NCBI RefSeq assembly: GCF_035285525.1
Contig: NZ_JAYKGW010000209.1
Span: forward strand, 1-32,000
Direction of reading: 5' to 3'
Length of the DNA: 32,000 nucleotides
Origin: Okeania sp.
GTDB lineage: Bacteria; Cyanobacteriota; Cyanobacteriia; Cyanobacteriales; Microcoleaceae
The translations under genes and the position numbers were made by a program. The first letter of the stretch is position 1. Each line of letters opens with the position of its first letter. The notes below the pieces were generated by a model, which had not been told where the DNA came from, made no database searches, and worked only from the letters and a program-made list of their open reading frames with translations. Positions 10,391-25,080 of this stretch are shown here, piece by piece.

Positions 10391-12442
10391 TCAGCTATTT
10401 GTTGAACCAAACAATAGCATGGAACAAGTTAAATTTTGGATTACTTCCATAGTAATATTACTAACTGCTAACCCACCAGCAGTACGACGGCGAATCGAAC
10501 GCAAAATAACTAAATCAACATATTTTGATTCTTGGGTAATCACACGGGAAGCATCATCATGGCGAACTGTTTTAATTTCTGTTTTCACCTGAAAACCTGA
10601 CTGATAAATTATAGTCGATAACTGAGATTCAAAATCATTCATCTGTTGTTCAGCAGTTCTCGGATCGCAAACATGGAGAAATGTTACTTCCCCTTGATTT
10701 GTATCTGCAAACATTAGGGAAAAAGTAATTTCTTGCAAAGTTTGTGGCGTTATATGCTTCAGAGGAACTAAGATCACACGAATATTAGTCGGTTCATCTA
10801 ACAAACGCATTACAGCTACCGGACAGTGACAAGAGCCAAACACATTGTTAATAATATTGCCAAATAAACGCGAACGCAAACCACCTATTTCACTCCATCC
10901 CATAACAATGAGATCGGCATTTTTCTCTTTTGCGGTGCGACTTATTCCTTCCGCAATATCATCATCAATTCTAATATCAGGTTGAGCTTCAACCTGAAAT
11001 TCTTTACTGATCTCCACAGCACGATTCAGTAAACGCCGATTCATGCGCATGGCACTATCTAGTTCTATCTCATCCATGTGAACATGAGCTTGGACAATAG
11101 ATAATGGGATAATAAATCCTGATTGATGACGAGCTAAAAGTGCTGCCATTTCCACTAAATATATTACTGTGAGGCGATTATTTACTGGAACTAATACAGT
11201 AAAAGGATCGACTTTACCATCTTCAGCATATTTTTGTTTACTTATTATCTTGTCAGTTTTGATATCTATTTGAGGTAGTGGCAACCGACTAGCAAATATA
11301 GTAGTCATCAAAGGTCCCAAAATAGATGTCACTAACATTAAAACTATAATACTATTGAATACTGATTCAGAAATTAATCCCACATTGAAACCAACTAATG
11401 CTGCTGCTAGGGTTGCTGCTACTTGTGGTATTGATAGAGACCACATAGTAAAAGCTTGATTCCAACTATAACGGTAAATAATTTTAGCGATCGCTGCTGC
11501 TAAGAATTTACTTCCTACTAAAGCAACTACTATTCCCAGAGTTAGTGCAAAGTTGTTGGTGAGACTTTCTATAAATGCTTGTATATCTAAAAGTAAACCC
11601 ATACCCACAAAGAAAAAAGGTATAAATAGGGTGCTACCAACAAATTCAATTTTTTCCTTGACTGGACCTGTACCTACGAGATCGTTAACTGCTAAACCTG
11701 CTAAAAATGCACCTATAATTTTATCAACATTGATTAACTCTGCACCAACTGATGCCAAAAATACTGCTAACAAAATAAACAAAAATTGATTGCTTTCTTG
11801 GTCTCCAGTGCGCCGGAAATATTGTCTTCCTACTGAGTCTAAACCGAATAATACTCCGACTGAATATAATCCTAAAGCGATTAACTGTACGCTTAAACTA
11901 GCTACAGAAAATTCTCCAGCATGAATTGATACACAAATTGCTAATACTAACAATGCAGCAATATCTGTAAAAATTGTTGCACCGATGGTGACAGTCACAG
12001 CTTCATTACTTACTACCCCTAAGCGGTTCACAATGGGAAAACCTAACAAAGTATGGGAAGCAAGTAAAGAACCAATGAGAACAGAAGAGTTCCAACCAAA
12101 GCCAAATATTTTCCCTAAGAGAAGACCACCAATGAGCGGTAGTGCAAAGGTAGCCATGCCAAAACCCAGGGAACGTTCTTTAGTTTTCCGGAACTCAGCG
12201 AGATCAATTTCTAGTCCGGCAACGAACATTAAATATATTTTGCCTATTTCTGTGAATAATTTCATTGCCTGATCGTCAGAAGTTAGAAGTTGAATCCCAC
12301 TGGGTCCTAAAATAACTCCAGCAACCAATAAACCTACTAACCCAGGAAGACGCAAACGCTCAAAAATTGGCGGTACAGTTAAGATGACTGCTAAAAGAAT
12401 AGTAAATGGAACGATAGGAGTATCTGGTAAAAATTGTAGCAT
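10391..12442 (-). CDS. CPA2-type cation:proton (Na+/H+ or K+/H+) antiporter with a C-terminal tandem USP-like domain
   Basis: The 683-aa ORF has about 12 TM helices of the Na_H_Exchanger type (LPGLVGLLVAGVILGP...), then a soluble tail of about 280 aa with the alternating beta-alpha pattern of universal-stress-protein folds (ADLIVMGW..., VDLVILRS). Confidence 0.82.
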   Translation of the reverse strand: MLQFLPDTPIVPFTILLAVILTVPPIFERLRLPGLVGLLVAGVILGPSGIQLLTSDDQAMKLFTEIGKIYLMFVAGLEIDLAEFRKTKERSLGFGMATFALPLIGGLLLGKIFGFGWNSSVLIGSLLASHTLLGFPIVNRLGVVSNEAVTVTIGATIFTDIAALLVLAICVSIHAGEFSVASLSVQLIALGLYSVGVLFGLDSVGRQYFRRTGDQESNQFLFILLAVFLASVGAELINVDKIIGAFLAGLAVNDLVGTGPVKEKIEFVGSTLFIPFFFVGMGLLLDIQAFIESLTNNFALTLGIVVALVGSKFLAAAIAKIIYRYSWNQAFTMWSLSIPQVAATLAAALVGFNVGLISESVFNSIIVLMLVTSILGPLMTTIFASRLPLPQIDIKTDKIISKQKYAEDGKVDPFTVLVPVNNRLTVIYLVEMAALLARHQSGFIIPLSIVQAHVHMDEIELDSAMRMNRRLLNRAVEISKEFQVEAQPDIRIDDDIAEGISRTAKEKNADLIVMGWSEIGGLRSRLFGNIINNVFGSCHCPVAVMRLLDEPTNIRVILVPLKHITPQTLQEITFSLMFADTNQGEVTFLHVCDPRTAEQQMNDFESQLSTIIYQSGFQVKTEIKTVRHDDASRVITQESKYVDLVILRSIRRRTAGGLAVSNITMEVIQNLTCSMLLFGSTNS

Positions 12443-12624
12443 ATCTGTTCAATAATTGATAATTAATGGTAGTCCTGCATAGTAATGATATACAGGAAAT
12501 AAGGAATACCTAATGTCGCAGCAAGATGCTCTCACTGTGCCTCCTAATCAAGGTAATGAAAATGCACGACCATTACAATGCACCACTACCGTAATTTTTG
12601 CCTTTTTTTTAACCTTGAAATTTC

Positions 12625-12713
12625 AGGACTTACGCAAAGGTACTACCTATAGATTTAAAAAACTATTGTGCAATAGTTTTTGAAGCTACATATAGCTTCC
12701 CTGCGTAAGTCCT
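12625..12713. repeat. MITE-like element with AGGACTTACGCA / TGCGTAAGTCCT termini and a central AAAAACTATTG..CAATAGTTTTT palindrome
   Basis: A 12-bp terminal inverted repeat and the internal palindrome are read directly. The same family occurs at 19857-19943 and 22230-22318, with half or partial copies at 16405-16470, 20383-20436 and 30310-30354. Confidence 0.85.
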
Positions 12714-12729
12714 AATTTTAACAGTCTTT

Positions 12730-12829
12730 GGACTAAAGCCATGTGAACCCAGAAACCCGGTTTCTCCAGGATGTTTATTGTCAAAAACAATAATTTACCG
12801 TAAAAACCGGGTTTCTTTGCATAAGTCCT
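12730..12829. repeat. Second MITE-like element (GGACTAAAGC ... GCATAAGTCC termini) with two AGAAACCCGGTTTCT-type hairpins
   Basis: The termini are imperfect inverted repeats. The AGAAACCCGGTTTCT hairpin is also at 9938-9952. Confidence 0.65.
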
Positions 12830-12857
12830 AATAAAATCAATCCTGACAATATATTAC

Positions 12858-12925
12858 CCCTACTCCCTTACTCCCTACTCCCTACTCCCTTACTCCCTTA
12901 CTCCCTACTCCCTACTCCCTACTCT
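12858..12925. repeat. Heptamer tandem repeat (CTCCCTA/CTCCCTT, about 10 copies), STRR-type
   Basis: Direct reading. It lies immediately 3' of the LysR gene stop codon. Confidence 0.95.
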
Positions 12926-12932
12926 AGTAATA

Positions 12933-13871
12933 TTATTGACTAACAAGATGGGAACTAACATCCTTTTTTTGAGTATATTCTTGAATGTATTCCAAAAATG
13001 CTTGCGCTATAACTGATAATTGTTTCCCATCTAAATAGGATATATACCACTGTCGCTGAATGGGAAAACCTTTAACTTCTAAAGTAGTAAGTTCCAACTC
13101 AGAACCTTGACTATATAAGGTATGTTCCGACAAAACAGAAATTCCTAACCCACCGGCGATCGCTTGTTTAATCGCCTCATTACAATTAAGTTCTAAACGC
13201 ACGTTCACAGAAATTTTGTGTTTAGCAAAAAGTTGTTGTACTGCTTTGCGCGTACCAGAACCCTGTTCTCGCATAATAAAAGCTTCATTTATGAGACGTT
13301 TAATTGGTATATTTTTCTGCTTTGCCAAGGGATGATTTTTGTTAGCCACTAAAACCAAGGGATTATCCATTATCGGTTCTCTACATAAAGGAATATCTTC
13401 TGGTGGTTGACTCATTATATATAGATCGTCTTGGTTTTCCAACATTCGCCTAGCGATCTGTTGATGGTTTGTTACTTCTAGAGCAACATCAATTTTGGGA
13501 TATTTTTGGCAGAAATAACCTAAGATTCTAGGAACAAAATATTTAGCAGTTGTCACCACGGCTAAACTTAACTTTCCTTGTTTTGTACCTTTACTATCGG
13601 CAACTAACATTTCAAAGCGATCTAGTTGTCCAAATACTTCCTGACAAGTAGCCAATAATTCTTGACCAATGTCAGTTAAGTAAAGTTGTTTACCTATTTG
13701 CTCAAATAAAGGCATCCCTACTGTCTGGGTGAGCTGCTTCATTTGACTTGAGACAGTGGGTTGGGTAATGAATAATTCTTCAGCAGCTTTAGTAAAGCTA
13801 CCATAACTAGCTACTGTCCGAAACACTCTTAACTGATGTAAAGTTGCCTGAATCAAGGACTTTTCCTCCAA
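12933..13871 (-). CDS. LysR-type transcriptional regulator of the CbbR/RbcR/CmpR group
   Basis: ATLHQLRVFRTVASYGSFTKAAEELFITQPTVSSQMKQL HTH region, then LFEQIGKQLYLT and a co-inducer domain (GSGTR, NEAIKQAIAGGLGISVLS) that closely resembles CmpR/RbcR as I remember them. It is divergent from a bicA-like gene. The ORF-track start is a TTG, so the exact start is uncertain. Confidence 0.85.
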   Translation of the reverse strand: MEEKSLIQATLHQLRVFRTVASYGSFTKAAEELFITQPTVSSQMKQLTQTVGMPLFEQIGKQLYLTDIGQELLATCQEVFGQLDRFEMLVADSKGTKQGKLSLAVVTTAKYFVPRILGYFCQKYPKIDVALEVTNHQQIARRMLENQDDLYIMSQPPEDIPLCREPIMDNPLVLVANKNHPLAKQKNIPIKRLINEAFIMREQGSGTRKAVQQLFAKHKISVNVRLELNCNEAIKQAIAGGLGISVLSEHTLYSQGSELELTTLEVKGFPIQRQWYISYLDGKQLSVIAQAFLEYIQEYTQKKDVSSHLVSQ

Positions 13872-14020
13872 TAATCAGAAATATAAAGAAAAACTTAAGA
13901 CTTATATAAGTAATTGCAAACTATTAGGTATTGCATTCTTGATTAATTTTTATCATAATTCTTAACATAGACTAAAGTCAATAGTTAATAAAAACTACAT
14001 TGACTAAATTAAATAGAACA

Positions 14021-14335
14021 GGGCGTGACATTTGTAGTCATCTTGAGATGACTCAGCTATCAGCCAAGGATTAAAATCCTTGGCCAGCCATCGGGTATAT
14101 GGTTAACATCAGGTTGCATTAATTAACCGAAATACAAAAAGATAGGGCGCGACATTTGTAGTCATCTTGAGATGACTTCAGCTATCAGCCAAGGATTTCA
14201 ATCCTTGGGGAGCCATCGGGTGTATGGTTAATATGAGGTGGGATTAATTAACCACAATACAAAAAGACAAAGCACGACATTTGTAGTCATCTTGAGATGA
14301 CTTCAGCTATTAGCCAAGGATTGAAGTCCTTAGCT
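14021..14335 (+). repeat. Tandem repeat of ~124-125 bp (2 full copies plus a 65-bp third copy) filling the regulator/bicA intergenic region
   Basis: Copies start at 14021, 14145 and 14270. Each carries AGTCATC-TTGA-GATGACT and CCAAGGA-N6-TCCTTGG hairpins. The full copies also carry GGTTAA-N16-TTAACC. The array ends 38 nt before the bicA ATG. Confidence 0.95.
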
Positions 14336-14373
14336 ACCTAATAAAAAAAAGAAGATAACAATAATATAAAACA

Positions 14374-16095
14374 ATGGCTACGCAAGTATTTAACAAAATC
14401 AATTTCAGAAACGTTAAGGGCGATATGTTCGGTGGTTTAACTGCTGCTGTTATCGCTCTCCCTATGGCACTCGCCTTCGGTGTTGCCTCTGGTGCCGGAC
14501 CTGCTGCTGGTTTATACGGTGCCGTATTAGTTGGTTTATTCGCCGCACTGTTTGGAGGTACTCCAACTCTAATTTCCGAACCCACCGGACCAATGACCGT
14601 AGTAATGACTGCGGTGATTGCTCACCTAACCGCTTCCAACCCAGAAAATGGCATGGCAATGGCTTTCACAGTAGTAATGCTAGCTGGTTTATTCCAAATT
14701 GGTTTTGGTTTATTAAAGTTGGGTAAATACATTACCATGATGCCTTACAATGTGGTTTCTGGCTTCATGTCAGGCATCGGTCTCATTCTGATTATCCTGC
14801 AAATAGGTCCGTTTCTCGGACAAGCTAGTCCGAAGGGTGGTGTAGTTGGAACAATCCAGAATATTCCCGAACTTTTAACGAATATTAATCCCATAGAAAC
14901 AGGTTTAGCAGTTCTGACAGTAGTTATCCTGTTCACCATGCCAGCTAAACTCAAGAAAATTGTTCCAGCACCATTAGTAGCATTAGTAGTTGGAACCGTG
15001 ATTTCCGTTGTATTGTTCTCAGGTACTGAAATTCGTCGCATTGGTGAAATTCCTAGTGGTCTTCCTAGCTTACACTTACCTTACTTTACTCCGGAACAGT
15101 TACAGTTAATGGTAGTTGATGCTGTAGTATTAGCAATGCTTGGTTGTATTGATGCTCTATTAACTTCTGTCGTTGCTGACAGTTTAACTCGGACTCAACA
15201 CGATTCTGATAAAGAATTGATTGGTCAAGGTTTAGGTAACTTAGCTTCGGGTTTGTTTGGTGGTATTGCTGGTGCTGGTGCAACTATGGGTACTGTTGTT
15301 AATATCAATACAGGCGCTCGTACTGCTTTATCAGGTATCACTCGTGCTGTAATTTTGATGGTGGTAGTTTTGGGAGCTGGTAGTTTAACAGCACAAATCC
15401 CGATGGCTGTTTTAGCAGGTATTGCTCTCCAAGTTGGGATTAAAATTATTGACTGGGGTTTCCTCAAGCGTGCCCATAATATCTCCTGGAAATCGGCAAT
15501 TATTATGTACGTTGTGATTGGTCTAACTGTATTTGTTGACTTGATTGCTGCTGTAGGTATTGGGGTATTTATTGCTAATGTTCTGACTATTGATCGCTTG
15601 ACTCAGCTCAAATCTGAAGATGTTAAAGCTATCACTGATGCTGATGATGCAATTATCTTGGATAATGATGAGAAAGAATTATTAGATCGTGCTGAAGGTC
15701 GAATTTTACTGTTCCATTTGAGTGGTCCGATGATATTTGGTGTTTCTAAAGCTATTTCTCGTCAGCACACACTTTTGAATAACTATGAAGTCTTGATTGT
15801 AGATTTGAGTGAAGTACCTCACATGGGTGTAACTTCTGCTCTAGCAATAGAAAATGCGATTCAAGAAACTCTTGATACAGGTCGTGCAGTATTCGTTGTT
15901 GGTGCTGCTGGAAGTGTAAAACGACGGTTAGAAAAATTGGGAGTTTTGAATATTGTACCTTCACAAAATCAATTGATGGATCGAAAGCAAGCATTGGTTA
16001 AAGCTGTGAGTTTAGTTACTTCTGATATTAGTGTTAATAGTGCTGTTCTTAATGGAACTCAAAGTCAATCTCCAATAGATACTCTGATTAAATAG
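14374..16095 (+). CDS. bicA: SulP-family, STAS-domain, Na+-dependent bicarbonate transporter (BicA-type)
   Basis: The 573-aa ORF is very close over its length to the Synechococcus PCC 7002 BicA sequence as I recall it (FRN.KGD.FGGLTAAVIALPMALAFGVASGAG, FGGTPTLISEPTGPMTVVMTAVIAH, CIDALLTSVVADSLTRT.H.S.KELIGQGLGN). It has a C-terminal STAS domain (LLFHLSGPMIFG). Confidence 0.85.
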   Translation: MATQVFNKINFRNVKGDMFGGLTAAVIALPMALAFGVASGAGPAAGLYGAVLVGLFAALFGGTPTLISEPTGPMTVVMTAVIAHLTASNPENGMAMAFTVVMLAGLFQIGFGLLKLGKYITMMPYNVVSGFMSGIGLILIILQIGPFLGQASPKGGVVGTIQNIPELLTNINPIETGLAVLTVVILFTMPAKLKKIVPAPLVALVVGTVISVVLFSGTEIRRIGEIPSGLPSLHLPYFTPEQLQLMVVDAVVLAMLGCIDALLTSVVADSLTRTQHDSDKELIGQGLGNLASGLFGGIAGAGATMGTVVNINTGARTALSGITRAVILMVVVLGAGSLTAQIPMAVLAGIALQVGIKIIDWGFLKRAHNISWKSAIIMYVVIGLTVFVDLIAAVGIGVFIANVLTIDRLTQLKSEDVKAITDADDAIILDNDEKELLDRAEGRILLFHLSGPMIFGVSKAISRQHTLLNNYEVLIVDLSEVPHMGVTSALAIENAIQETLDTGRAVFVVGAAGSVKRRLEKLGVLNIVPSQNQLMDRKQALVKAVSLVTSDISVNSAVLNGTQSQSPIDTLIK

Positions 16096-16170
16096 AAGTA
16101 TTCAAAAAAGATAACAGGTTTGACTAAAGATTAAAAATCAGAAACAGGCGATCGCTTTGGTTTTCTGAGT

Positions 16171-16210
16171 GTAGGGGTGAATAGCATTCGCCCCTACAAT
16201 ATTTTTATTC
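16171..16210 (+). terminator. Candidate intrinsic terminator of bicA (also a member of the GTAGGGGCGAAT...CCCCTAC repeat family)
   Basis: GTAGGGGTGAAT-AGC-ATTCGCCCCTAC gives a 12-bp stem with one G.U, followed by AATATTTTTATT. It lies 76 nt after the bicA stop. Confidence 0.6.
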
Positions 16211-16561: not shown

Positions 16562-19500
16562 TCATGCATTGCTGTCAAATAATAATTCCACAGTTCCCTT
16601 ATACCCATCTACCCTAACTTTTTGCCCATCCTCTAAACGAGTCATTGCTCCAGAAACATTCATTACTGCCGGAATGCCATATTCCCGCGCAATAATAGCA
16701 CCGTGGGATAACTGCCCCCCCACCTCTGCAATAATACCTTTTGCCTTCAACAACAAAGGTGCCCAACCAGCATCGGTATAAGGTACAACTATAATTAGAT
16801 TTTCCGACTCAGGCAGATTTACCTCTAAACTCCCACAAACCTTGACATAACCTTCGACACAACCAACACTCCCTGGTATCCCTTCTAAAATAGAAACATT
16901 TTCCTCAGTAGAGATAGTTTTCTGGCTTTCTTGGGGTAATATATTCCCATAAACCACAGAAGGAACTTGGCGATCGCGATCTTTTGCCAACTGTTCTTTT
17001 CTTTCATGGATAAGTTGTTTGAGATGGTGAGATGGGGGGATAGGGAGTTGAGGCGATCGCTTGTTTTTTTCTTCAGTTCCTAGACTATTTCTTGGGTTTC
17101 GTTCCTCAACCCAACCTACTGTTAGAATCCATTGCCTAATTTCCGGAAATTCTAAATAAAAAATATCTCCTTTTTCTTCAAAAATTTCTGCCTCTAATCC
17201 ATAACTTTCTATTGCCAAAAACGTCATTCGTAAATAAGCTAAAAGTTTCCCATAAACTTCAGCAATTTTACCTTTAGTTCTGGCACGTTTTGCACATTTT
17301 GCTAGTCGCCACCTCTGCCAGAAATTTAAAGACTTTACTGAAAAATTATCTTTTTCCCTCTCATCTTTTCCTGTCATTCCAAATAATAACTGACGGAAAT
17401 TATCGGGTTTTTCTCCCCAAGTTGCCACTGCAATATCCGTACCAACTTCACTCAAATAACCATAACTTTCTAACCATTGCTGAAATTCCTTTTGTAATTC
17501 CTGATTTTTCTCAAATTCTGCCTCTATTTCTCCATCAGAATTAGTTGCCATTTTTAACTTAACTGCCAACTTTTGTAATTCTCGAATCGAAACAATTTCT
17601 GGAGCAGTATCAGTAGGCAACCATTCCTCAGAAATTTGGAACAGCGATCGCCTAATCGCCAAACCTATAGGACCCAAAATATTATAAAAAGTAATTGGTT
17701 TTAACCATTCTTGAATTTTTTCTGCTTGCTCTAATAATTCTGATAAAGACTGAGATAAATTTTGTTTAAAATTATTCTCTAAACTTTCTAACGCTGGAAC
17801 AAAAATTTGATAATAATCCCGTTCAAACTCATCATCAACCGTCATTTCTTTTTTAATCAAACGCCATAAACCAGGCAAAGAAGGCAACACTTTTCCTAAT
17901 GGTGGTTTTCCCATTTTTTGCCCTCGTAATAAAAACTCTAAACCCTGTTCTGGCAAACCCATCATTCTAAAAATTTCCCCTAACAAAGTAGCATTAAAAT
18001 AAGCATAGGAACCTAACAAAGTTGCGGTTTCGGTAAAGTCTAATTTGGCTACCTTTTCCCCTAAAACGATAGTAAAAATTTCTCCCCAAACCCCACAAGT
18101 CAGAGGGCGATTTATCGACCAAGTTAAAGGATGAATAGCTCCGGGAATTACTTCTGCTGCAATAGTTCGAGTCCAGATAGGTCTCAAATTAGTAATCGGA
18201 CGACTTTGCAAAATCCAAACCTTTTCCCCATCCCAACACCATTCAATATCTTGAGGTAAACCATGAAAAAATGCTTCAATTGTTTCTGCTTGATTTACCA
18301 ATTCTTGAATAGTTCCTTCTGGTAAAATATTCTGATTTTCTAAACCAACATATTTTTCAGTCTCATCATAATTTTCTATTTTTTCCTCTCTTTCATTTAC
18401 CAATTCTTTAGTGATTTCCAGAGGTAAAATATCTTGACATTCTGAATCAGAACTTTTGTCTTTTTCTTTTGAGTTTAATAACTCGTCGTCTATAGGATAT
18501 TTAAAATTAGTTGAAGTTTGAGTAACCACCCACTTCTTATCCCCCCCCTTCAAAAGGGAGATTTCTTCTTTCCCCCCCCTTTCAAAGGGGGGCAAGGGGG
18601 GATTCCTTCTTCCTTCTTCAACAATTTCTAAATGCACAGGAGTTAACTGCCCACCCACAACTTTTTCCGCACCTCCAGGCAGAGCTTCAATAATTATTTT
18701 TGCACCACCATCCAAAGGATTACGAGTAAACATTACTCCCGCTACTTTACTCTTAATATAAGGCTGAATTAATACTCCCATTTCTGCATCAGGAATTTCT
18801 CTTTGTCGCCGATAAGCAACAGCATCTGGCAACCAATAAGATTGACGACAAATATTAATCGCCTCCAATAATTCCGTTTTATTTCTGACAGGAAAAATAG
18901 TTTTATATTGTCCCGCAGCCGAACTATTATCGCTATCTTCTCCAACTGCTGAAGAACGAACAATTAAGGGAAAACTCCCAGACATTTTCTCTAATTTATC
19001 TAGAATTTTATCTACTGATAAAAATAGAGAATCAGGAATAGATTTTTTCTGTTCATTCCCTACCATTAATGCAGGTAAAACTAAACCTTCAGGAATATTA
19101 AAGCCAGCTTTTTTTAATAGAGATAATCTAGCTGCTTTTTCTCCACAAATTTTAGTATCTAGTTTACTATCGAGAGAAAATATAGATTGTTTATTTAAAG
19201 CCATATCATCACTTTGAATAAAATTTATTACTGCTAAGAAAATGACTAATACTGCCATTGCCAACAATTCAGAAAAAGACGGTTCCTGGCGAAATAATAA
19301 AACCGATAGAAAGCCACTGAGACATCCTAAACGAGCTGACCATTGACGAACATTTTGATTTTTTTGAGGAAATAGTTGTTTGCCGATTACTAATATTAAA
19401 CAACCTATAATTCCCGAAGCCAAAGCAACAATAGGAGAATAAACCAAAACTCCCCAAGTAGCATTAGTAACACCACCACCTTGAGCAATAAAATATCTAC

Positions 19501-19795
19501 CCGCTACTAAAAATATTAATCCTAATAATTGCCAAAAAGGAATTTCTGGAAATAATAATTTTGCTGCTAAAACCGGAGCAATACCTCTACTAATTTCTGC
19601 AAAAACCGCGACTATTGCCACAGGTTTCGGTGCGTGAACAAATGCGGCAGATACACCAACATTACCTGTACCAACCTTTTTTAAGTCGATATTTGCTAGA
19701 TTTTTAACTATTAAATTAGTTAGAGGAAAAGCACCGAGACAAAAGGATAAAATTAGAAATAATATTGCAATTAATATTTGCATATCAAGAAACAT
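16562..19795 (-). CDS. Fusion protein: N-terminal PlsY-like polytopic membrane domain, then a PPDK_N-type ATP-grasp domain, a long middle region, and a C-terminal PEP-utilizer swivel-His domain
   Basis: Residues 1-~195 are hydrophobic helices with KKVGTGNVGVSAAF (compare PlsY GSGNxGATN) and GGGVTNAT. Then come IVRSSAVGEDSDNSSAAGQYKTI, GVMFTRNPLDGG and PQDIEWCW..ILQSRPIT (ATP-grasp of the PEP synthase/PPDK family). The C-terminus has TDAGWAPLLLKAKGIIAEVGGQLSHGAIIAREYGIPAVMNV (phospho-His swivel domain). No TIM-barrel PEP/pyruvate domain follows. Confidence 0.85.
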   Translation of the reverse strand: MFLDMQILIAILFLILSFCLGAFPLTNLIVKNLANIDLKKVGTGNVGVSAAFVHAPKPVAIVAVFAEISRGIAPVLAAKLLFPEIPFWQLLGLIFLVAGRYFIAQGGGVTNATWGVLVYSPIVALASGIIGCLILVIGKQLFPQKNQNVRQWSARLGCLSGFLSVLLFRQEPSFSELLAMAVLVIFLAVINFIQSDDMALNKQSIFSLDSKLDTKICGEKAARLSLLKKAGFNIPEGLVLPALMVGNEQKKSIPDSLFLSVDKILDKLEKMSGSFPLIVRSSAVGEDSDNSSAAGQYKTIFPVRNKTELLEAINICRQSYWLPDAVAYRRQREIPDAEMGVLIQPYIKSKVAGVMFTRNPLDGGAKIIIEALPGGAEKVVGGQLTPVHLEIVEEGRRNPPLPPFERGGKEEISLLKGGDKKWVVTQTSTNFKYPIDDELLNSKEKDKSSDSECQDILPLEITKELVNEREEKIENYDETEKYVGLENQNILPEGTIQELVNQAETIEAFFHGLPQDIEWCWDGEKVWILQSRPITNLRPIWTRTIAAEVIPGAIHPLTWSINRPLTCGVWGEIFTIVLGEKVAKLDFTETATLLGSYAYFNATLLGEIFRMMGLPEQGLEFLLRGQKMGKPPLGKVLPSLPGLWRLIKKEMTVDDEFERDYYQIFVPALESLENNFKQNLSQSLSELLEQAEKIQEWLKPITFYNILGPIGLAIRRSLFQISEEWLPTDTAPEIVSIRELQKLAVKLKMATNSDGEIEAEFEKNQELQKEFQQWLESYGYLSEVGTDIAVATWGEKPDNFRQLLFGMTGKDEREKDNFSVKSLNFWQRWRLAKCAKRARTKGKIAEVYGKLLAYLRMTFLAIESYGLEAEIFEEKGDIFYLEFPEIRQWILTVGWVEERNPRNSLGTEEKNKRSPQLPIPPSHHLKQLIHERKEQLAKDRDRQVPSVVYGNILPQESQKTISTEENVSILEGIPGSVGCVEGYVKVCGSLEVNLPESENLIIVVPYTDAGWAPLLLKAKGIIAEVGGQLSHGAIIAREYGIPAVMNVSGAMTRLEDGQKVRVDGYKGTVELLFDSNA

Positions 19796-19856
19796 ATTTA
19801 CTATTATCGAATATTTTGATTTTTTCGAGTCAAGACTTATTTATCTATTACTAACA

Positions 19857-19943
19857 AGACTTACGTAGAAACCATATATATAGCGCTCAAAACTATAGCG
19901 CTATAGTTTTGAGCGCTATATCTATTACCTTTGCGTAAGTCCT
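19857..19943. repeat. MITE-like element (AGACTTACG...CGTAAGTCCT termini) containing a 44-bp perfect palindrome
   Basis: The palindrome ATATAGCGCTCAAAACTATAGC|GCTATAGTTTTGAGCGCTATAT is at 19878-19921. The element is a direct-orientation partner of 22230-22318. Confidence 0.9.
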
Positions 19944-19945
19944 GG

Positions 19946-20515
19946 CTAATATAAAAAAACAGTTATTCCCAAAGCCAAAGCAACAATAGGATAATAAATC
20001 AAAACTCCGCAACTAGCATTAGTAACATCACCACCTTGAGCAATGAAATATCTACCTACCACTAGAAATATTAATCCTATTAATTGCCAAGTAGGAATTT
20101 CTGGAAATAATAATTTTGCTGCTAAAACCGAAGCAATGCTTCTACTAATTTCTGCCAAGACAGCAAATATTGCGACAGGTTTCCGTTAATCCTAATAATT
20201 ACTAAGAAGGAATTTCTGGAAATAATAATTTTGCTGCTAAAACTAGAGCAATACCTCTAGTAATTTCCGCCAAGACAACAAATATTGCCACAGGTTTCCA
20301 TGTGTGAACAAATGTGGTTGCCACACGAACATTACCTGTACCAAATTTTATTAAGTCGATATTTGCCAGATTTATGACTATTCAGCACTTATGCCAAGGT
20401 ACTGATTATATATAGAGTTTAAAAACTATTGCACAGAGGAAAAGCACCGAGACAAAAGGAGAAAGTTAGAAATAATACTGGAATCAATATTTGCATATCA
20501 AGAAACATATTTATA
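19946..20515 (-). pseudogene. Decayed partial duplicate of the 5' end (about codons 1-135, the PlsY-like domain) of the adjacent fusion gene
   Basis: About 85-90% nt identity by eye to 19390-19795, including the ATG and 8 upstream nt. It contains stops and frameshifts, an internal duplication of the KPVAI...LLFPEIP segment (junction about 20180), and a 54-nt half-MITE insertion at 20383-20436. The track ORF 19946..20158 is its best-preserved piece. Confidence 0.88.
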
Positions 20516-21004
20516 CGGTCGCCTTGCTGTCACAGGATTAAACTGAGTATCCACAAATTCCACTGGTTCGTAAGTCTCAATCCACAAATGTGCGCCACAA
20601 GGCAAGGGTTCATAAGGTTTATAAACTATACGACACCTACCTTCGAGAATCATCTGATAACCCATATCATTACGATTTGTTTGCTTCAAGGCAACTACTG
20701 GCATTAATTGGTCAGAAGTCATTAGAGGATCGTTCTTAATTCTCTTGGCATTTGCTTTAATCAAACTTTGATTAACATGAATCTTGGTCGGAGTTTTACG
20801 CCTGCGATGGCACCAAACACCTTTCGGACCTCTTTTGCCTTCTATAATGATAGGCATCTCCTCTTTTCCATAAACAGGAATGCGCCAAAATCCTCTTTGA
20901 TCCTTGTACCCACCCTTGATTCTACCTTCTCTAAGTAAATCTCTAACTCTTTGAGAACAAATACCCAATATAAAAGATGCTTCTTTGGTTCCAATATACG
21001 TCAT
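20498..21004 (-). CDS. Hypothetical protein: N-terminal excisionase/MerR-like HTH plus a basic linker and a ~100-aa domain of unknown function
   Basis: GTKEASFILGICSQRVRDLLREGRIKGGYKDQRGFWRIP fits the HTH_17/excisionase pattern (LG.s..tv.r....G.i.......g.W.Ip). I could not recognise the rest. The ATG lies 6 nt downstream of a TATAGCGCTATAGTTTT palindrome. The stop overlaps the ATG of the pseudo-PlsY copy (ATGTTTCTTGA). Confidence 0.55.
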   Translation of the reverse strand: MTYIGTKEASFILGICSQRVRDLLREGRIKGGYKDQRGFWRIPVYGKEEMPIIIEGKRGPKGVWCHRRRKTPTKIHVNQSLIKANAKRIKNDPLMTSDQLMPVVALKQTNRNDMGYQMILEGRCRIVYKPYEPLPCGAHLWIETYEPVEFVDTQFNPVTARRPYKYVS

Positions 21005-21182: not shown

Positions 21183-22221
21183 TAGACTTGTCGCTAAATA
21201 AAACCTGGAAACTGGCAAAACAAAATTGTTAAATCCTCGGTTGCATCCATTAACTTATGCTGCTATTAAATAGAAATTCCATAGTCCTACAGCAGTTAAC
21301 GCGACAGCGATCGTCTAAATATTTGAGCCTATTTCTATAGATTGCTGTTGTTGCATTGTATCTTTTTACTCCTGATCTTGTGTGTTCACACAGATACGCG
21401 AACACTACTTTTTTCTCGGTTTGATTGTTTCTGTTTATCTGTTAATTCTTTTTTTCTCGGCTTTTTCGTGGGTATTTTGATGTTAACAAATTCTTTTTGT
21501 AATCCCTGAAAACCTGAATCCACATGAATTGTCACTTCCGAAAAGCACAAATTCTGCCAGTTTTTCTTCATCTAGTTGCCGTTTATCATGCACCTTACCC
21601 CCTCGCGATGAGTGAAAGCACTAAAACTCTCTTATTCTCGTCTGTCATAATTAAATGTTGACTCGTATGACGCTTTTTTTTACCTGAGTAATGCTCTTTC
21701 TGCTTCTGTTGCTCTTTTGGACGTTGAATTGGGCGTTCTGTACCATCAATCATTACTTCTCTAGCTGATGGAAATTTGCTCATAAATTCTCCGACACTTT
21801 CTAATTTACGTTCTGGTAAGGCCATTTTTTTCCCCAATGACTTCTCCAGTATTGCTTGTAGTCTTAACATCCAACGGTGTGCTCGACTGCGGTGCAAGTC
21901 AAACAATACCCCCGCTACATCAAAGGTAGGATAACATTTAAAATAGAACAAAATCAAAAATAGTTGATCTTTGGCTTCTGGCAATCTCGCCTTTCTACTT
22001 CCTCCTCTGGCTCGGAGTCTAGGCTTTTGGGTTCTGGCGATCGCTTCCAAGTCAAGCTGGACAGAAAAAACTTCCAACAATTCATCAAATGCTTTACGGT
22101 TTAGTCCCGTTAATGCTCTTAATAGTCTATCTTCTTTTAGCACTCGATTAATGTCCAGCATTTTTTCATCTCATCTTTATAGATACTAACCATTACTTTA
22201 CCTTATTAAGCGACAAGTCTA
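21183..22221 (-). mobile_element. Degenerate IS (~1.04 kb) of the IS5-like / DDE_Tnp_4 (Harbinger-type) kind with recognisable terminal inverted repeats
   Basis: Terminal inverted repeats are TAGACTTGTCGCT(A)AATAA at 21183-21201 and TTATT(A)AGCGACAAGTCTA at 22203-22221. A possible 3-bp ATT duplication flanks them if the ends are trimmed by 1 nt. A transposase reading frame fills the interior. Confidence 0.75.
21250..22161 (-). pseudogene. Frameshifted DDE transposase (HTH_Tnp_4 + DDE_Tnp_4-like)
   Basis: The 188-aa ORF carries IDGTERPIQRPK...YSGKKKRHT. The 61-aa ORF carries VDSGFQGLQK...PTKKPRKKELT..K..NR..S..RV. After another frame change at about 21386 the tail reads VEHTRSGVKRY....YRNR. 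At least two, and probably three, frameshifts are needed to join them. Confidence 0.8.
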
Positions 22222-22229
22222 TTTAATTA

Positions 22230-22318
22230 GAACTTACGCATAGACCATAGATATAGCGTTAAAAACTATAGCGCTATAGTTTTTGAACTCTATATATACT
22301 ACCTCCCGTGTAATTCCT
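22230..22318. repeat. MITE-like element, same family and orientation as 19857-19943
   Basis: GAACTTACGCATAGACCATAGATATAGCGTTAAAAACTATAGCGCTATAGTTTTTGAACTCTATATATACTACCT...TAATTCCT aligns position-for-position with the 19857 copy. The palindrome is slightly degraded. Confidence 0.85.
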
Positions 22319-22325
22319 ATTAATT

Positions 22326-23732
22326 TTACACTCTTGAATTAATTTCAATCTGATAATTGTCTGCAATTCTTTTAATAGGAAATTGAACAAACTTTGGTTC
22401 ACCTATTATTTTCCACTCAAACATCCGTAGCAAATGAGATGCAAAAATTTTACTAATTATCATTGCCATCTGCGCTCCTAAACAACCATGCACTCCACCC
22501 CCGAAAGGAATAAATTTGTAAATTTGACCTTCATTACGTTCTGGCAAAAAACGTTCTGGTTCAAATTTCTCTGGTTCCTGAAAATGTTCTGGCATAATGT
22601 GAGCTATCCTGGGTTCTGCCATTAAAGTCCAGCCTTTTTCATAGAGCATACCATCAACAACAACAGATTTTGTTAACCGACGACTAGCAGTGGAACTTGG
22701 TGGTAAAGTGCGGAGAGTTTCTTTAATCGTTGCCTCCAGAAAAGTCATCTGTTTTAAATGCTCTGGTGAAAATTCACTAATATTATTATTTTCACCTAAT
22801 ATCTGTTCTTGCTCTTGTCGTAACTTTTGCAATATTTGGGGATATTTTCCAAGTTGATATATTAGAGAACATACAAATCCGGAAATTTCGTAGTGGGATG
22901 CCCACAACTGCAAAAGACATTGATTTTTGATCAGAATATCTATAAATATTCCATCTGGATTTTCCTGCTGACCAACTAACATCATTGACAAAAAGTCTTG
23001 AGTAGGATTAATATTTTCCTCTTCTCCCAATCGTCGCTTAATAACTGCATCCATAAATTCAATCAACTTTTTTCGTGCTGTTATTCCGCGCCCATAAGCA
23101 GTTAAAGGAGATTGCCACTTCAGCAATCCATAAAAACCATCAAAATAGGTTTTGTATAAAGCTTTTAATTCTGCTTTTGAAGAAATTGGTAATCCCTCAA
23201 AAGTAGTAGAGTCGGAATCGTTTAAACTAATTCCTAATAGTAGGGGAGTAAGTATATCAAAACTAATTTTCTCTACTGCTGGATATAACTGAATTTTTTG
23301 ACTACCCCATGTTTTGATGCCTTGATAAATAATGTTATTAATGTGGGGAATATATCCTGCTAATGTTGCACCAGTTAAACCAGGTGCTAATGCTGATTTA
23401 CGTTGACTGTGTAGATCGGGACGTTGAAATAAACTGTACTCGCCAAACATTTCCATTGTAGTTGCTGGCAATGCAATTTCTGTATATTTATTGTCTCCAT
23501 TAAATGCCATTTTATTTGCATTAGCACTTCCTATAAATACTGTCGTTCCACCAAAAACACCAGTTTTGAATATAGGACCATATTTTTTGAAGTTTTCACT
23601 ACAGAAGCGATCAGGATTAGCTATGTAATTAAATGTGTCATGCCATTTTGGTTTTCGTGGTGGAATTTTAGTTTCCTCTGGTGCTGTTTCTCCATCAGCT
23701 AATAATAGTAATTCAGTTGTTTGTAAGTTCAT
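22326..23732 (-). CDS. Cytochrome P450
   Basis: Heme-thiolate loop FIPFGGGVHGCLGAQMA, EXXR (ETLR), PERF (FEPERFLP), 468 aa. It generally resembles cyanobacterial CYP120-type P450s, but the family assignment is not verified. Confidence 0.9.
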   Translation of the reverse strand: MNLQTTELLLLADGETAPEETKIPPRKPKWHDTFNYIANPDRFCSENFKKYGPIFKTGVFGGTTVFIGSANANKMAFNGDNKYTEIALPATTMEMFGEYSLFQRPDLHSQRKSALAPGLTGATLAGYIPHINNIIYQGIKTWGSQKIQLYPAVEKISFDILTPLLLGISLNDSDSTTFEGLPISSKAELKALYKTYFDGFYGLLKWQSPLTAYGRGITARKKLIEFMDAVIKRRLGEEENINPTQDFLSMMLVGQQENPDGIFIDILIKNQCLLQLWASHYEISGFVCSLIYQLGKYPQILQKLRQEQEQILGENNNISEFSPEHLKQMTFLEATIKETLRTLPPSSTASRRLTKSVVVDGMLYEKGWTLMAEPRIAHIMPEHFQEPEKFEPERFLPERNEGQIYKFIPFGGGVHGCLGAQMAMIISKIFASHLLRMFEWKIIGEPKFVQFPIKRIADNYQIEINSRV

Positions 23733-24906
23733 TGTTTATGTCTAAAACTAATTTTAAAAAAGGTAGTATGTGTCAAGGTAAGTGTTAGAAATTAAAGAAA
23801 AATACTAATTTTTCAAGTAATTGTCAAAACAAGATTATAACAGCTTTCAGGTTAATTATATACACAATAAAAAAAATTGGCTTATAACTTCATTAATAAT
23901 CTTTGTTATTGCAATAAAATATCAGCCCAAACTCTATACCAATCCTATTTTATTTGTCTATAAAAATCTTACCGCTTTTAGGGAATAGGGAACAGAGAAC
24001 AGATAAGATTTTCAGTTTTTTATCTAACTTTTGATTTGTCACAACCTATTTAGGATTGCTATGCTATATTTGTTTCTGGTAAATTTGGTTCTCTTTGTCT
24101 TGTCGATTATTTGAACATCGCTCTTAATTTGATGATTAATAAACTAGCATAATTTGCCAGTTTCTTAATCAATCAATTTCAATTAAATGAGTCCGACTAT
24201 TGAATATTAACCCTCGTTTTTGTTTATATTTTTATTTACCTAAACCAGATTAATAGTGAATAATAAAAATGTCAGCATTCAGCTATTAGCAACTGTCAGC
24301 TAACGTCCTGCGAAGGAACTGTCTTAACAACAATAATACGGGTGCATATCATAGAGCGCCAAAATACTTTTTTCCTATTCCTGACTCCCTATTCCTTGTT
24401 CCCTGTTCCCAGTTAAGTGTTCCTTAAAAGCGACAAGTTTTTGGCTTTATTCATGCATTGAGATGCACCCAATAATAATCTATGTTTAAGGATAGATTTT
24501 AAGTGAATGTAGACTTTAGAGATTACTTTTATAGTAAAATTTTTCGTTTCTCAATTAAATATTGCTTTGATCACTCACTAAAAATAATAGCTGGTAGCTC
24601 ATGGCTGACGTCTAAATGCTTACATAAAAACTATAGAAATCTCCGCTTATATTATAACAATTAAAAAAAAATTAGAAACCAACTCCGAAACTATTACTTA
24701 TTACCATTACCTCCAAACCTCACATATAAAATATTAGCAAGATTTTTGACACCAATAAAATAAAATTACTATATCCCTAATTATCAATTATCAATTATTC
24801 ATTATCCATTAATAAATTATTTTCTATTCAAAAAAACACACATTAACCTGAAATATGCTGTAATATTTAATGGTACTCAAAAAAAATATAATAGGAAAAT
24901 TTAATT

Positions 24907-25080
24907 ATGGTACAAGGAGATTTATGGATTCCCATAGCAGTTGTAGTAGTAGGCTTTGTCGCTGCTGTAGCTATTGGTTCAATTGCTTGGTATAACTCTA
25001 AGCGTCCTCCTGGCTGGGAAGGTACCGAACGTCCTGACTATGTTCCTCAAATCGATCGAGATGAAAATGAAAATAGCTAG
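24907..25080 (+). CDS. Small (57 aa) single-pass membrane protein, below the ORF-track length cutoff
   Basis: Reads ATG..TAG as MVQGDLWIPIAVVVVGFVAAVAIGSIAWYNSKRPPGWEGTERPDYVPQIDRDENENS. It has one clean TM helix followed by a charged tail, with a purine-rich TAGGAAAA 9 nt upstream of the ATG. The WYNSKRPxGWE tail looks familiar from small conserved cyanobacterial proteins, but I cannot name the family with confidence. Confidence 0.5.
   Translation: MVQGDLWIPIAVVVVGFVAAVAIGSIAWYNSKRPPGWEGTERPDYVPQIDRDENENS

Follow-up and report, generated by a model that had tools for sequence, protein, structure and literature searches.

The window, a stretch of 32,000 nucleotides from Okeania sp., contains on its minus strand (16562..19795) a gene for a fusion protein of 1077 amino acids, counted from the first ATG of the open reading frame to a TGA stop codon at 16562-16564. 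The NCBI model of an identical Okeania sp. protein (100% identity) starts at M5 (nt 19783), four residues downstream of the start of this frame, and comprises 1073 amino acids. A Pfam search identified PF02660 (G3P_acyltransf) at aa 17-188 with 50.5 bits (cut-off 24.1, E 3e-13), PF01326 (PPDK_N) at aa 250-537 with 154.6 bits and PF00391 (PEP-utilizers) at aa 998-1067 with 78.2 bits, scores that are far beyond chance; PF02896 was absent from the protein at E-values up to 1. This is the set of domains, and the absence, that the original prediction had anticipated, and the score for PF02660 supports the PlsY-like N-terminus proposed there. Each of the motifs it had quoted was located in the protein, namely GTGNVG (aa 42-47), AEISRG (aa 66-71), GRYF (aa 99-102), GGGVTNAT (aa 106-113) and GGQLSHGAI (aa 1026-1034).

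The order of the soluble domains, an ATP-grasp domain followed by a middle region of about 430 residues and a C-terminal swivel histidine, is that of the RPH enzymes. RPH-Lm (5FBS, 5HV1; PMC4844700), which has the same order of ATP-grasp domain, large helical substrate-binding region and C-terminal swivel histidine, is the top solved relative in the profile search (E 1e-85) as well as in the fold search (E 1e-28), and its match to the AF2 model of the fusion protein (pLDDT 82.7, pTM 0.71) spans the whole soluble part. Together with the Pfam search this confirms the predicted RPH-type order without a PEP/pyruvate TIM barrel. An assignment to PEP synthase or pyruvate phosphate dikinase was rejected, as PF02896 is missing, the swivel domain is C-terminal and not central, and TIGR01418 reaches 170 bits against a cut-off of 740. 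The gene is a PlsY-derived membrane domain joined to an ATP-driven histidine-relay kinase. In the literature searched, neither a characterised enzyme combining a PlsY-like and an RPH-type part nor a studied member of this family was found, in agreement with what had been stated before.

Over 200 clusters of proteins, drawn from independent genomes, share the fused architecture; the uninterrupted frame, already noted in the original prediction, therefore does not stem from misassembly or a frameshift, and the fusion junction is real. Within the Cyanobacteria the fusion is spread from Gloeobacter to Trichodesmium and Leptolyngbya. Among 58 informative metagenomic loci of uncultured bacteria, both parts are fused in 16, the kinase gene is adjacent in 21 and nearby in another 5. 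The possibility had been raised that orthologues might be two separate genes and the junction an artefact: separate genes do indeed exist, but as natural variants which overlap by 14 nt or sit 8 nt apart, and which strengthen the functional link of both parts. At locus L048, where the two genes are also separate, the kinase is 28% identical over the whole soluble part. Besides these translationally coupled or adjacent arrangements, the PlsY-like domain persists even at loci where no kinase is seen nearby. We define a module here by a PlsY-like domain with Thr35, Asn37, Glu59, Lys/Arg62, the glycine loop and a C-terminal Asp-Asp (PlsY numbering), together with a fused or adjacent RPH-type kinase sharing the post-grasp motif described below. 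The signature of the PlsY-like domain holds for members from cyanobacteria and from the environment, which are about 30% identical; in the window it consists of T43, N45, E67, R70, G106-G108 and D196-D197, by which the protein is assigned to this uncharacterised module of a DD-type PlsY-like domain and a putative swivel-His dikinase.

The membrane domain (aa 1-197; 19205..19795, minus strand) was delimited by PF02660, Foldseek and residue tables as a PlsY-derived domain of seven transmembrane helices with an altered G3P site and a preserved glycine loop ('phosphate hole'). In the fold search it matched the PlsY structures 5XJ5/5XJ7 with a target-normalised TM score of 0.75 and an rmsd of ~3.7 A over ~197 columns. 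aaPlsY (5XJ5-5XJ9) shows the seven-helix topology with both the C-terminus and the active-site cleft in the cytoplasm (PMC5700162), and because of this position of the C-terminus the kinase part is expected to be cytoplasmic. The domain has a mean conservation of 0.62, the same as the ATP-grasp domain (0.62), and 20 invariant positions, with buried polar and charged residues among them; T43, N45, E67, G71, R100, G108, T110, N111, W114, G115, R150, D196 and D197 are invariant in the family. Those invariant residues that are polar or charged all fall in the cytoplasmic cleft, which is the active site in PlsY.

In aaPlsY, the phosphate of G3P is clamped by Ser35, Arg45, Lys104 and Asn180 and its 2-OH is bound by Ser142 and His177; the S35T mutant has 17% activity left, R45K loses more than 90%, and His177 is indispensable (PMC5700162). 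All six positions are altered in the fusion protein: Thr43 is found at Ser35, Val at Arg45 and Gly at Lys104, Ser142 is lost, and His177 and Asn180 are without an equivalent, a conserved Asp-Asp standing instead. The residue tables show that this loss holds family-wide. Genuine cyanobacterial PlsYs (n=12), in contrast, retain all six residues. The Asp-Asp pair (Asp196-Asp197; 19205..19210, minus strand), identified by conservation and alignment to aaPlsY, sits where the last transmembrane helix ends on the cytoplasmic side; it takes the place of PlsY motif 3, with an acidic residue at Arg183, and marks the domain boundary, as split-gene versions terminate 2-5 residues beyond it.

The acyl-phosphate site of aaPlsY is made up of the backbone of the glycine-rich loop 3, the hydroxyl of Thr41, His92 and Asn37, the last being the oxyanion stabiliser in acyl transfer (PMC5700162). 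Here the fusion protein keeps the GxGN motif, the E/D..K/R-G pattern (D..KG of PlsY being E..RG), Gly102/103/105 and Asn37 (= Asn45); Thr41 is replaced by Ser49 with retention of the hydroxyl and His92 by Arg100 with retention of a basic residue. Lys104 and His92, which belong to the acyl-phosphate site of PlsY, are thus themselves altered, and Asn42 has become Ala. The substitutions flagged from the motifs beforehand (D..KG and His92) are therefore correct, and they are systematic. Asn37 is near-universal in the DD-type family; its retention is weak evidence, because the genuine cyanobacterial PlsYs, which keep all other compared G3P and acyl-phosphate residues, have Ser there. Judged from these residues, the acyl-phosphate half of the PlsY site appears retained and is compatible with phosphate binding, and the membrane domain is unlikely to acylate G3P or to be a G3P acyltransferase. 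Of the 'acyl-phosphate or G3P-binding scaffold' of the original prediction only the first part stands: since the G3P positions are changed and the acyl-phosphate elements kept, the scaffold narrows to one for acyl-phosphate or another lipid phosphate.

Downstream of a short linker (aa 198-210; 19166..19204, minus strand; low pLDDT at aa 198-202) follows the ATP-grasp nucleotide-binding domain (aa 211-537; 18185..19165, minus strand), delimited by PF01326 and alignments to RPH-Lm. R280-S281-S282 corresponds to Arg117 of RPH-Lm and T299 to Thr136, and QDIEW is located at aa 515-519; alignment and pLDDT show lineage-specific disordered insertions at aa 396-425, 434-441 and 455-484. R280/S281/S282, QDIEW and GGxLSHGA are invariant in the kinase part of the family. 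The post-grasp segment (aa 538-660; 17816..18184, minus strand), assigned by conservation and alignment to RPH-Lm, is the best-conserved stretch of the protein: 55 of its 123 residues do not vary, and it is 65% identical even to its counterpart in the distant Leptolyngbya/Nodosilinea branch, yet in the alignment it has no sequence match to the equivalent RPH region 332-540. It is a candidate for the acceptor site or for the interface with the membrane domain. The helical middle domain (aa 661-960; 16916..17815, minus strand) is homologous to the C-terminal part of the RPH substrate-binding domain, and Pfam PF27448 (Rph_4th) is present in orthologues. Finally, the phospho-histidine swivel domain (aa 961-1077; 16565..16915, minus strand), recognised by PF00391 and alignment to RPH-Lm, contains the catalytic His1031 (nt 16703-16705) within the invariant motif GGQLSHGAIIAREYGIPAV, aligned with His825 of RPH-Lm. 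As far as conserved ATP-grasp residues and His1031 can tell, the predicted kinase machinery is intact.

Overall the fusion protein is only ~18% identical to RPH-Lm. Of three residues of the RPH second site, one is retained, as the invariant Lys841 (nt 17273-17275) aligns with the likewise basic Arg666, whereas Glu667 and Lys670 correspond to Gly842 and Ala845 and have no conserved counterpart; the second-site motif REYPKY is consequently absent, although unfused homologues (loci L033-L037) retain it. RPH is also soluble, unlike the fusion with its N-terminal seven-helix domain, and the NCBIfam models for RPH remain below cut-off (NF041857, 201 bits versus 999; NF000283, 136 bits versus 1700). 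Further relatives are the prodiginine ligases PigC, HapC and RedH and the aromatic kinases HpeHI and MarK (PMC13534948, PMC12167813, PMC12624787). The NCBIfam models of PigC and RedH match the fusion at ~1e-59 and ~1e-49, but the scores lie far below the family cut-offs (NF052631, 200 bits versus 1300; NF052632, 167 bits versus 1350), and HpeI (9GOJ) is among the fold-search matches. These enzymes use the same relay of ATP-grasp domain and swivel histidine on hydrophobic acceptors, which as far as is known are soluble metabolites with a pyrrole aldehyde or phenolic oxygen as the accepting group, and in HpeHI the relay is divisible between polypeptides. None of them has a membrane domain, in contrast to the fusion.

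The cyanobacterial gene neighbourhoods compared gave no consistent functional clue; a CYP120-type P450 hydroxylase gene is the immediate upstream neighbour within the Okeania/Trichodesmium lineage (45-nt gap at L008 and L023) and is specific to it. Among the environmental loci, VTT/DedA lipid-flippase genes adjoin the PlsY-like gene in 20, in two arrangements and with PlsY-like proteins that are only 48-62% identical; this family includes undecaprenyl-phosphate and PE flippases (PMC12893004, PMC10193950). Genes of the PAP2 lipid-phosphate-phosphatase type are found sporadically downstream (L045, L042). One operon has the order SDR, PlsY-like protein, CrtO-family membrane acyltransferase and kinase, with a 5-nt gap followed by a 4-nt overlap; this CrtO link comes from one organism (the near-identical loci L048 and L051) and does not recur elsewhere among the loci compared. 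Loci lacking the kinase retain the PlsY-like gene with the same neighbours, and the PlsY-like protein must therefore have a function of its own. The natural partners of PlsY are producers of acyl-phosphate (PMC10146087), and at kinase-less loci acyl-phosphate made by PlsX could supply the PlsY-like protein.

Taken together, the fusion probably serves to activate a lipid of the membrane by an as yet undescribed route, and we consider it fairly probable that it is a two-module enzyme with a membrane lipid as its substrate. The flippase genes beside the PlsY-like gene agree with such a lipid setting. The residues suggest a membrane-integrated histidine-relay dikinase whose predicted PlsY-derived lipid-phosphate pocket would no longer bind G3P. 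By homology to RPH-Lm, whose mechanism has been established experimentally (PMC4844700), and from the conserved residues, ATP would be bound by the cytoplasmic ATP-grasp domain, its beta-phosphate would be transferred to His1031 with release of AMP and Pi, and the swivel domain would carry the phosphate to a second site formed by the post-grasp and helical domains (Lys841). This site may abut the cleft by which the PlsY-like domain faces the cytoplasm, and the acceptor would be a membrane-resident lipid, with the carboxylate of a free fatty acid as the favoured candidate. The labile acyl-phosphate might then sit in the retained 'phosphate hole' (glycine loop, Asn45, Ser49, Arg100), from which the acyl group would pass to an acceptor other than G3P, bound by Arg150 and Asp196-Asp197 or by a partner acyltransferase.

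This version, with ATP-driven conversion of a fatty acid to acyl-phosphate, hand-over to the PlsY-like pocket and an acceptor other than G3P, is put forward with clearly more reserve than the broader claim; direct formation of acyl-phosphate, already suggested in the original prediction, fits the residue pattern and the single CrtO operon. The entire dikinase route from fatty acid and ATP to acyl-phosphate, AMP and Pi, channelled to a neofunctionalised PlsY whose acyl acceptor would not be G3P but perhaps an amine, a sugar or a different lipid head group, is possible but somewhat doubtful. Transfer from phospho-histidine to a carboxylate has precedents in succinyl-CoA synthetase and ATP-citrate lyase. 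Within the kinase superfamily itself we know of no characterised relative that phosphorylates a carboxylate; RPH, PigC/HapC, the phenol kinases HpeHI and MarK, glucan water dikinase and PEPS/PPDK use hydroxyl or enol oxygens only. The fusion would be a one-polypeptide functional analogue of the Gram-positive two-step pathway, in which FakAB or PlsX hands acyl-phosphate at the membrane to the PlsY pocket (PMC10146087). FakA, FakB and PlsX share no homology with its kinase part, and the proposed route would differ by the swivelling phospho-histidine, the conversion of ATP to AMP and Pi and the acceptor.

The main rival accounts for the data nearly as well, although on balance we think it unlikely: the dikinase may phosphorylate a hydroxyl group on a lipid of the membrane, for instance a polyprenol, a lipid resembling diacylglycerol, or an isoprenoid or fatty acid that has been hydroxylated, and the PlsY-derived pocket would present the head group or hold the lipid-phosphate product without any acyl transfer. 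O-phosphorylation of hydroxyls on hydrophobic molecules is established RPH chemistry (PMC4844700). Any lipid phosphate could find a place in the retained glycine loop, and the flippase, PAP2 and P450 neighbours all suit a lipid alcohol, as does the use of hydroxyls by the other relatives so far as these are known; the links to PAP2 and P450 genes are, however, sporadic or lineage-specific. This explanation leaves unaccounted for the PlsY-like gene at kinase-less loci, the near-universal Asn37 and the CrtO acyltransferase between both genes in one operon.

Quite improbable, in our opinion, is a membrane domain that merely tethers a kinase whose substrate, be it a xenobiotic, a pigment or a secondary metabolite, is bound wholly by the soluble middle domain, with no ligand in the pocket. 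The complete RPH-type substrate-binding region (Rph_4th), the action of such enzymes on hydrophobic small molecules and the degenerate G3P site would agree with it; a passive anchor would not be expected to be as conserved as the ATP-grasp domain, to confine its invariant polar and charged residues to the active-site cleft, to hold the signature down to ~30% identity or to persist as a separate coupled gene and even at loci where no kinase is seen nearby. Very improbable is that the NCBI and UniRef name 'glycerol-3-phosphate acyltransferase' is correct and the kinase an accessory or regulatory domain. PF02660 exceeds its threshold, but five of six G3P-binding residues are absent and the sixth is the substitution that leaves aaPlsY with 17% activity (PMC5700162). 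NF010993, the sole PlsY-type NCBIfam model among the matches listed, reaches 33 bits against a cut-off of 249, an exhaustive search found canonical PlsYs at ~24-30% identity and only at E 1e-7 or weaker, and cyanobacterial lineages including Leptolyngbyaceae and Oscillatoria own a separate full-featured PlsY of ~225 aa. The database name is probably wrong for the fusion family.

To our knowledge, PlsY has so far been described with one activity only, and RPH-type dikinases as soluble enzymes for antibiotics, pigments and aromatics. If our reading holds, the DD-type family is the first documented PlsY fold with a new function, and its changes follow a clear rule: the site for G3P has been lost, that for the lipid phosphate has stayed, and an acidic Asp-Asp pair has been acquired. 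A membrane-integrated RPH-type kinase would imply a lipid substrate, and thereby either a new synthesis of acyl-phosphate or a new lipid kinase. Hundreds of database entries probably bear the name 'glycerol-3-phosphate acyltransferase' or 'PEP synthase' wrongly, and reconstructions of lipid metabolism that draw on them could be led astray. Among the Cyanobacteria the family is ancient and has a broad distribution, which takes in Trichodesmium, a nitrogen fixer of global importance; as a related module is found in many uncultured bacteria, its product may be a common but overlooked membrane component. Should the dikinase route to acyl-phosphate prove true, it would represent a new pathway of lipid activation and acylation, shared by cyanobacteria as far apart as Gloeobacter and Trichodesmium and by many bacteria that are uncultured, and perhaps also a new class of lipids.

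The gene is a single ORF of 1077 aa that spans 16562-19795 of the window on the minus strand and ends with a TGA stop. The Okeania sp. protein P0001 is 100% identical to it, with the NCBI start placed 4 residues later (1073 aa). In the Pfam search, PF02660 (G3P_acyltransf) matched residues 17-188 with 50.5 bits (cutoff 24.1), PF01326 (PPDK_N) residues 250-537 with 154.6 bits (cutoff 27) and PF00391 (PEP-utilizers) residues 998-1067 with 78.2 bits (cutoff 23.1); PF02896 was not found in the protein. These are the domains that the original prediction had expected to be present or absent, and its observation of a PlsY-like membrane domain fused to an RPH-type kinase is confirmed in full by them together with the matches to RPH-Lm and PlsY. 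All motifs quoted there are present in the ORF at the places given for them.

The soluble part is nearest to the PRK06241 'PEP synthase' subfamilies, RPH, PigC and RedH of NCBIfam, with scores that are all far under the cutoffs (approximately 200 bits versus 900-1350). Its best solved relatives are the entries of the rifampin phosphotransferase RPH-Lm (5FBS, 5HV1), found with E 2e-43 from the single sequence and E 1e-85 from the family profile, which were also best by fold (E 1e-28, whole chain aligned). An AF2 model of the protein, built on 66 homologues, was called confident (mean pLDDT 82.7, pTM 0.71), and its first 197 residues fit onto PlsY structures with target-normalised TM values of 0.72-0.76 and an rmsd of approximately 3.7 Å. 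The low-confidence stretches are found where the lineage-specific insertions are. These charged low-complexity insertions (aa 396-425, 434-441, 455-484 and 893-920; nt approximately 18344-18610 and 17036-17119) lie in the ATP-grasp and middle domains and are lacking in more than 70% of the aligned homologues; pLDDT is below 50 in most of aa 396-487 and in a few residues of the aa 893-920 insert.

More than 200 protein clusters, drawn from independent assemblies, have the fused architecture. Fused members are known from Okeania, Dapis, Trichodesmium (including T. erythraeum IMS101), Planktothrix, Microcoleus, Oscillatoria nigro-viridis PCC 7112, Tychonema and Lyngbya, in a second set from Leptolyngbya, Nodosilinea, Phormidium tenue, Elainellaceae and Trichocoleus, and also from Gloeobacter kilaueensis and the unicellular Cyanobacterium stanieri. 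An assembly or frameshift artefact at the junction, which had been considered as an alternative, is thus ruled out by the recurrence of the fused ORF in hundreds of independent assemblies. Many orthologues carry PF27448 (Rph_4th). Some fused members, P0148 (Cyanobacterium stanieri), P0149, P0168, P0176 and P0262, show degenerate catalytic motifs, e.g. RPC in place of RSS, EGN in place of the glycine loop or no GTGN motif, and may be decaying or re-purposed copies.

Split versions exist as well. In locus L043 and the independent contig L044 a 197-aa PlsY-like gene and a 750-aa kinase gene overlap by 14 nt, and in the cyanobacterial MAG locus L045 the two genes are 8 nt apart. A scan of metagenome contigs, for which non-cyanobacterial PlsY-like proteins of the family type had been aligned as query, yielded 80 loci; 58 of them were informative, with 400 nt or more of sequence following the PlsY-like gene. 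A fused gene of approximately 1000 aa was present in 16 of these 58, a kinase immediately downstream on the same strand in 21 and a kinase nearby in 5, and no kinase was seen in the sequence of the other 16. The kinase of metagenomic locus L048 aligns with the whole soluble part of the window protein at 28% identity, and the match takes in the swivel His as well as the post-grasp motif specific to the family. That the two parts are joined in some loci and separate in others, across distant lineages, is evidence of a classical kind that the PlsY-like part and the kinase work together. In loci L087, L090 and L046, the PlsY-like gene has the neighbours that recur in the environmental clade (see below), but these sequences contain no kinase gene, which may be encoded elsewhere in the genomes; this suggests that the PlsY-like protein is a functional unit in its own right.

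In the structurally solved aaPlsY (5XJ5-5XJ9), the G3P phosphate is clamped by Ser35, Arg45, Lys104 and Asn180, the 2-OH of G3P is bound by Ser142 and His177, the acyl-phosphate is held by the backbone of the glycine-rich loop 3 (104-107), Thr41 and His92, Asn37 is the oxyanion stabiliser, and the opening of the active site faces the cytoplasm, at mid-depth of the inner leaflet (PMC5700162). Family residues were read from alignments with aaPlsY and canonical PlsYs. Ser35 of the clamp is Thr in the family, Arg45 is variable (Val in the window protein), Lys104 is Gly or Ala in cyanobacterial members, and Asn180 and His177 have no equivalent; Ser142 is variable, and Arg183, which acts in Pi release, is Asp within a conserved Asp-Asp. 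Asn37 is kept, as are Gly102, Gly103 and Gly105 of the phosphate hole. Thr41 is Ser in cyanobacterial members, Asp59 and Lys62 of a conserved motif are represented by Glu and by Lys or Arg, and His92 is Arg in cyanobacteria and mostly Thr in environmental members.

Genuine cyanobacterial PlsYs (n=12, approximately 225 aa), which were retrieved with a self-composed cyanobacterial-style PlsY probe, keep every one of these residues except Asn37 (Ser), and share just 24-30% identity with the N-domain of the window protein in partial alignments. Such PlsYs of approximately 225 aa were obtained from many cyanobacteria, with neither Okeania nor Trichodesmium among the best 120 matches to the self-composed probe. 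An exhaustive search with the N-domain alone gave 36 representative clusters at E 1e-10 or better, mostly fused or split family members, and canonical PlsY appeared only at E of approximately 1e-7 or weaker.

The PlsY-like domain equals the ATP-grasp domain in conservation (mean 0.62 each), and 20 of its positions are invariant in 66 sequences (G21, P24, L38, G42, T43, N45, F52, E67, G71, R100, G108, T110, N111, W114, G115, R150, L183, I190, D196 and D197). Aligned to the published topology, the polar ones among them would all lie on the cytoplasmic half, at the PlsY cleft. Judged by its residues, the domain is most probably a neofunctionalised member of the PlsY superfamily in which the site appears to have lost its glycerol-phosphate half and kept its lipid-phosphate half; a passive anchor is improbable.

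In the kinase part, the ATP-site residues R280/S281/S282 (corresponding to Arg117 of RPH-Lm), Thr/Ser299 (Thr136) and QDIEW are invariant, as is the swivel motif GGxLSH(1031)GA, whose His1031 pairs with RPH-Lm His825 in a bridged alignment. The domain order and the conservation of the ATP-site and swivel-His residues point to an RPH-type architecture and relay chemistry. Of the second-site triad of RPH-Lm, Arg666/Glu667/Lys670 (PMC4844700), only the first position is kept in the family, as an invariant Lys841, whereas the unfused RPH-like homologues in loci L033-L037 retain the REYPKY motif. Conservation is highest in the post-grasp stretch aa 538-660, with 55 of 123 positions invariant and 65% identity to a distant branch versus 32-39% in the neighbouring domains; the alignment gave no sequence match for it in RPH. 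As far as sequence can tell, the kinase part is RPH-type, but apparently neither an RPH nor a PigC nor a PEP synthase.

The fusion gene appears to stand alone in the window. Downstream and convergent to it lies the gene of a SulP/STAS transporter (+), which forms a cluster at 10391-16095 with a Na+/H+ exchanger with Usp domains (-) and a LysR regulator (-) and is followed by a terminator-like hairpin (16170-16198). This cluster resembles cyanobacterial inorganic-carbon or ion-uptake loci. On the upstream side, a palindromic element of approximately 90 nt (19855-19944) contains a 20-bp perfect hairpin core (19878-19921) approximately 83 nt before the start codon, and the element occurs again at 22229-22298. 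Flanked by these two copies, a 2.3-kb segment lies between the fusion gene and a gene for a CYP120-like P450 of 468 aa (22326-23732, minus strand; best solved relative Synechocystis CYP120A1, 2VE3, E 2.5e-56). Since in the Trichodesmium MAG loci L008 and L023 the P450 gene is merely 45 nt upstream of the fusion gene, the palindrome-bracketed segment looks like a mobile insertion that splits an ancestral pair. It encodes a truncated DDE_Tnp_4/HTH_Tnp_4 transposase (188 aa, 21595-22161, minus strand) and an HTH-like ORF of 168 aa with a weak HTH_17 match (20498-21004, minus strand). In several loci of Okeania, Dapis and Trichodesmium, a homologue of this ORF immediately precedes the fusion gene, ending 1 nt from its start codon in L002 and L010; in L015 a homologue lies elsewhere. 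The ORF is possibly a mobile-element gene that exists in multiple copies and inserts preferentially at one site. A 114/115-nt unit is also present before the fusion gene, as two tandem intergenic copies that are 89% identical (20071-20299).

Further upstream, an AT-rich stretch of 1.9 kb (23733-25611, 29-32% GC) contains several short repeats and no ORF of at least 100 aa. It is followed by genes for an LmeA-like phospholipid-binding protein (PF11209, 253 aa, 25612-26373, minus strand) and a pentapeptide-repeat protein (26837-27439, minus strand). A 475-aa ORF with a TTG start (27759-29186, plus strand) had no Pfam match at E up to 0.001, and Rfam and tRNA scans found no RNA genes in the window.

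Among the relatives, the P450 gene is directly upstream of the fusion gene solely in the Okeania/Trichodesmium/Dapis lineage, where it is a possible functional partner as a lipid or isoprenoid hydroxylase. In Oscillatoriales, the LmeA-like and pentapeptide genes are conserved as a block in synteny with the fusion gene, upstream of it and with gaps of 288-630 nt; in related loci the block also includes a DICT/CHASE6/HD sensor. The P450 and LmeA-like genes are confined to Oscillatoriales; in the Leptolyngbya and Nodosilinea loci the DICT/HD-pentapeptide-LmeA block is absent and the neighbours are unrelated. We treat the block as lineage synteny and rejected the cyanobacterial neighbourhood as a guide to function.

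In the environmental clade, two families of VTT/DedA membrane proteins (PF09335) recur in 20 loci, next to other recurrent neighbours, i.e. a cupredoxin-like, a DUF3108-like and a DUF255 protein. The VTT and PlsY-like genes are direct neighbours, in some loci pointing the same way (11-17-nt gaps) and in others divergent, and this adjacency holds across PlsY-like proteins that are just 48-62% identical to one another. DedA-family proteins flip undecaprenyl phosphate or PE lipids (PMC12893004, PMC10193950). HMMs for VTT/DedA, cupredoxin-like, DUF3108-like, DUF255 and DUF2141 proteins matched none of the cyanobacterial loci, and carrying these neighbours over to cyanobacteria was therefore rejected.

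The near-identical loci L048 and L051, which stem from one organism, contain an operon of an SDR gene, the PlsY-like gene, a CrtO-family membrane acyltransferase gene (PF18927, 104.7 bits) and the kinase gene, with 5 nt between the PlsY-like and CrtO genes and a 4-nt overlap of the CrtO and kinase genes. As CrtO is absent from the 78 other metagenomic loci and all cyanobacterial loci examined, it was rejected as a recurrent partner and is a single-lineage hint. PAP2-type genes (lipid phosphate phosphatase family) lie just downstream of the split module in L045 (3615-4334) and, as a weak match with a VCPO_2nd domain, convergent to the fusion gene of Oscillatoria nigro-viridis (L042, 11131-12852); they did not recur in the other loci examined.

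No description of the family came up when the literature was searched for the fusion, for PlsY-like proteins and by Pfam domain name, in line with the earlier statement that no characterised enzyme with this architecture is known. Each module is a member of a known superfamily; their combination, the rewiring of the PlsY site and the change in the second kinase site have no characterised counterpart.

From the conserved residues and the homology to RPH-Lm, ATP would be bound by the ATP-grasp domain and its beta-phosphate transferred to His1031, whereupon the swivel domain would take the phosphate to a second site. We infer that this site faces the PlsY-like cleft and that the acceptor is a membrane lipid. 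The conservation data fit poorly with two other explanations, namely that the protein is a G3P acyltransferase, as NCBI and UniRef name it, which is very unlikely, and that the PlsY-like domain merely tethers the kinase, which we regard as improbable. The main rival is a kinase acting on a lipid alcohol, a rather doubtful proposal even though it is the better fit to the known chemistry of the kinase family and matches the DedA, PAP2 and P450 neighbours.

Our tentative preference is for a fatty-acid carboxylate as acceptor, which would give an acyl-phosphate. PlsY's natural partners are producers of acyl-phosphate that must deliver this labile intermediate at the membrane (PMC10146087), which speaks for such a product. 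The residue pattern also favours it by keeping exactly the acyl-phosphate half of PlsY, as do the kinase-less variants, which could use PlsX-derived acyl-phosphate, and the acyltransferase inserted between the two genes in one operon. Transfer from phospho-His to a carboxylate has a precedent in succinyl-CoA synthetase, which argues in the same direction. The acyl-phosphate would be held by the retained phosphate hole and then used to acylate an acceptor other than G3P.
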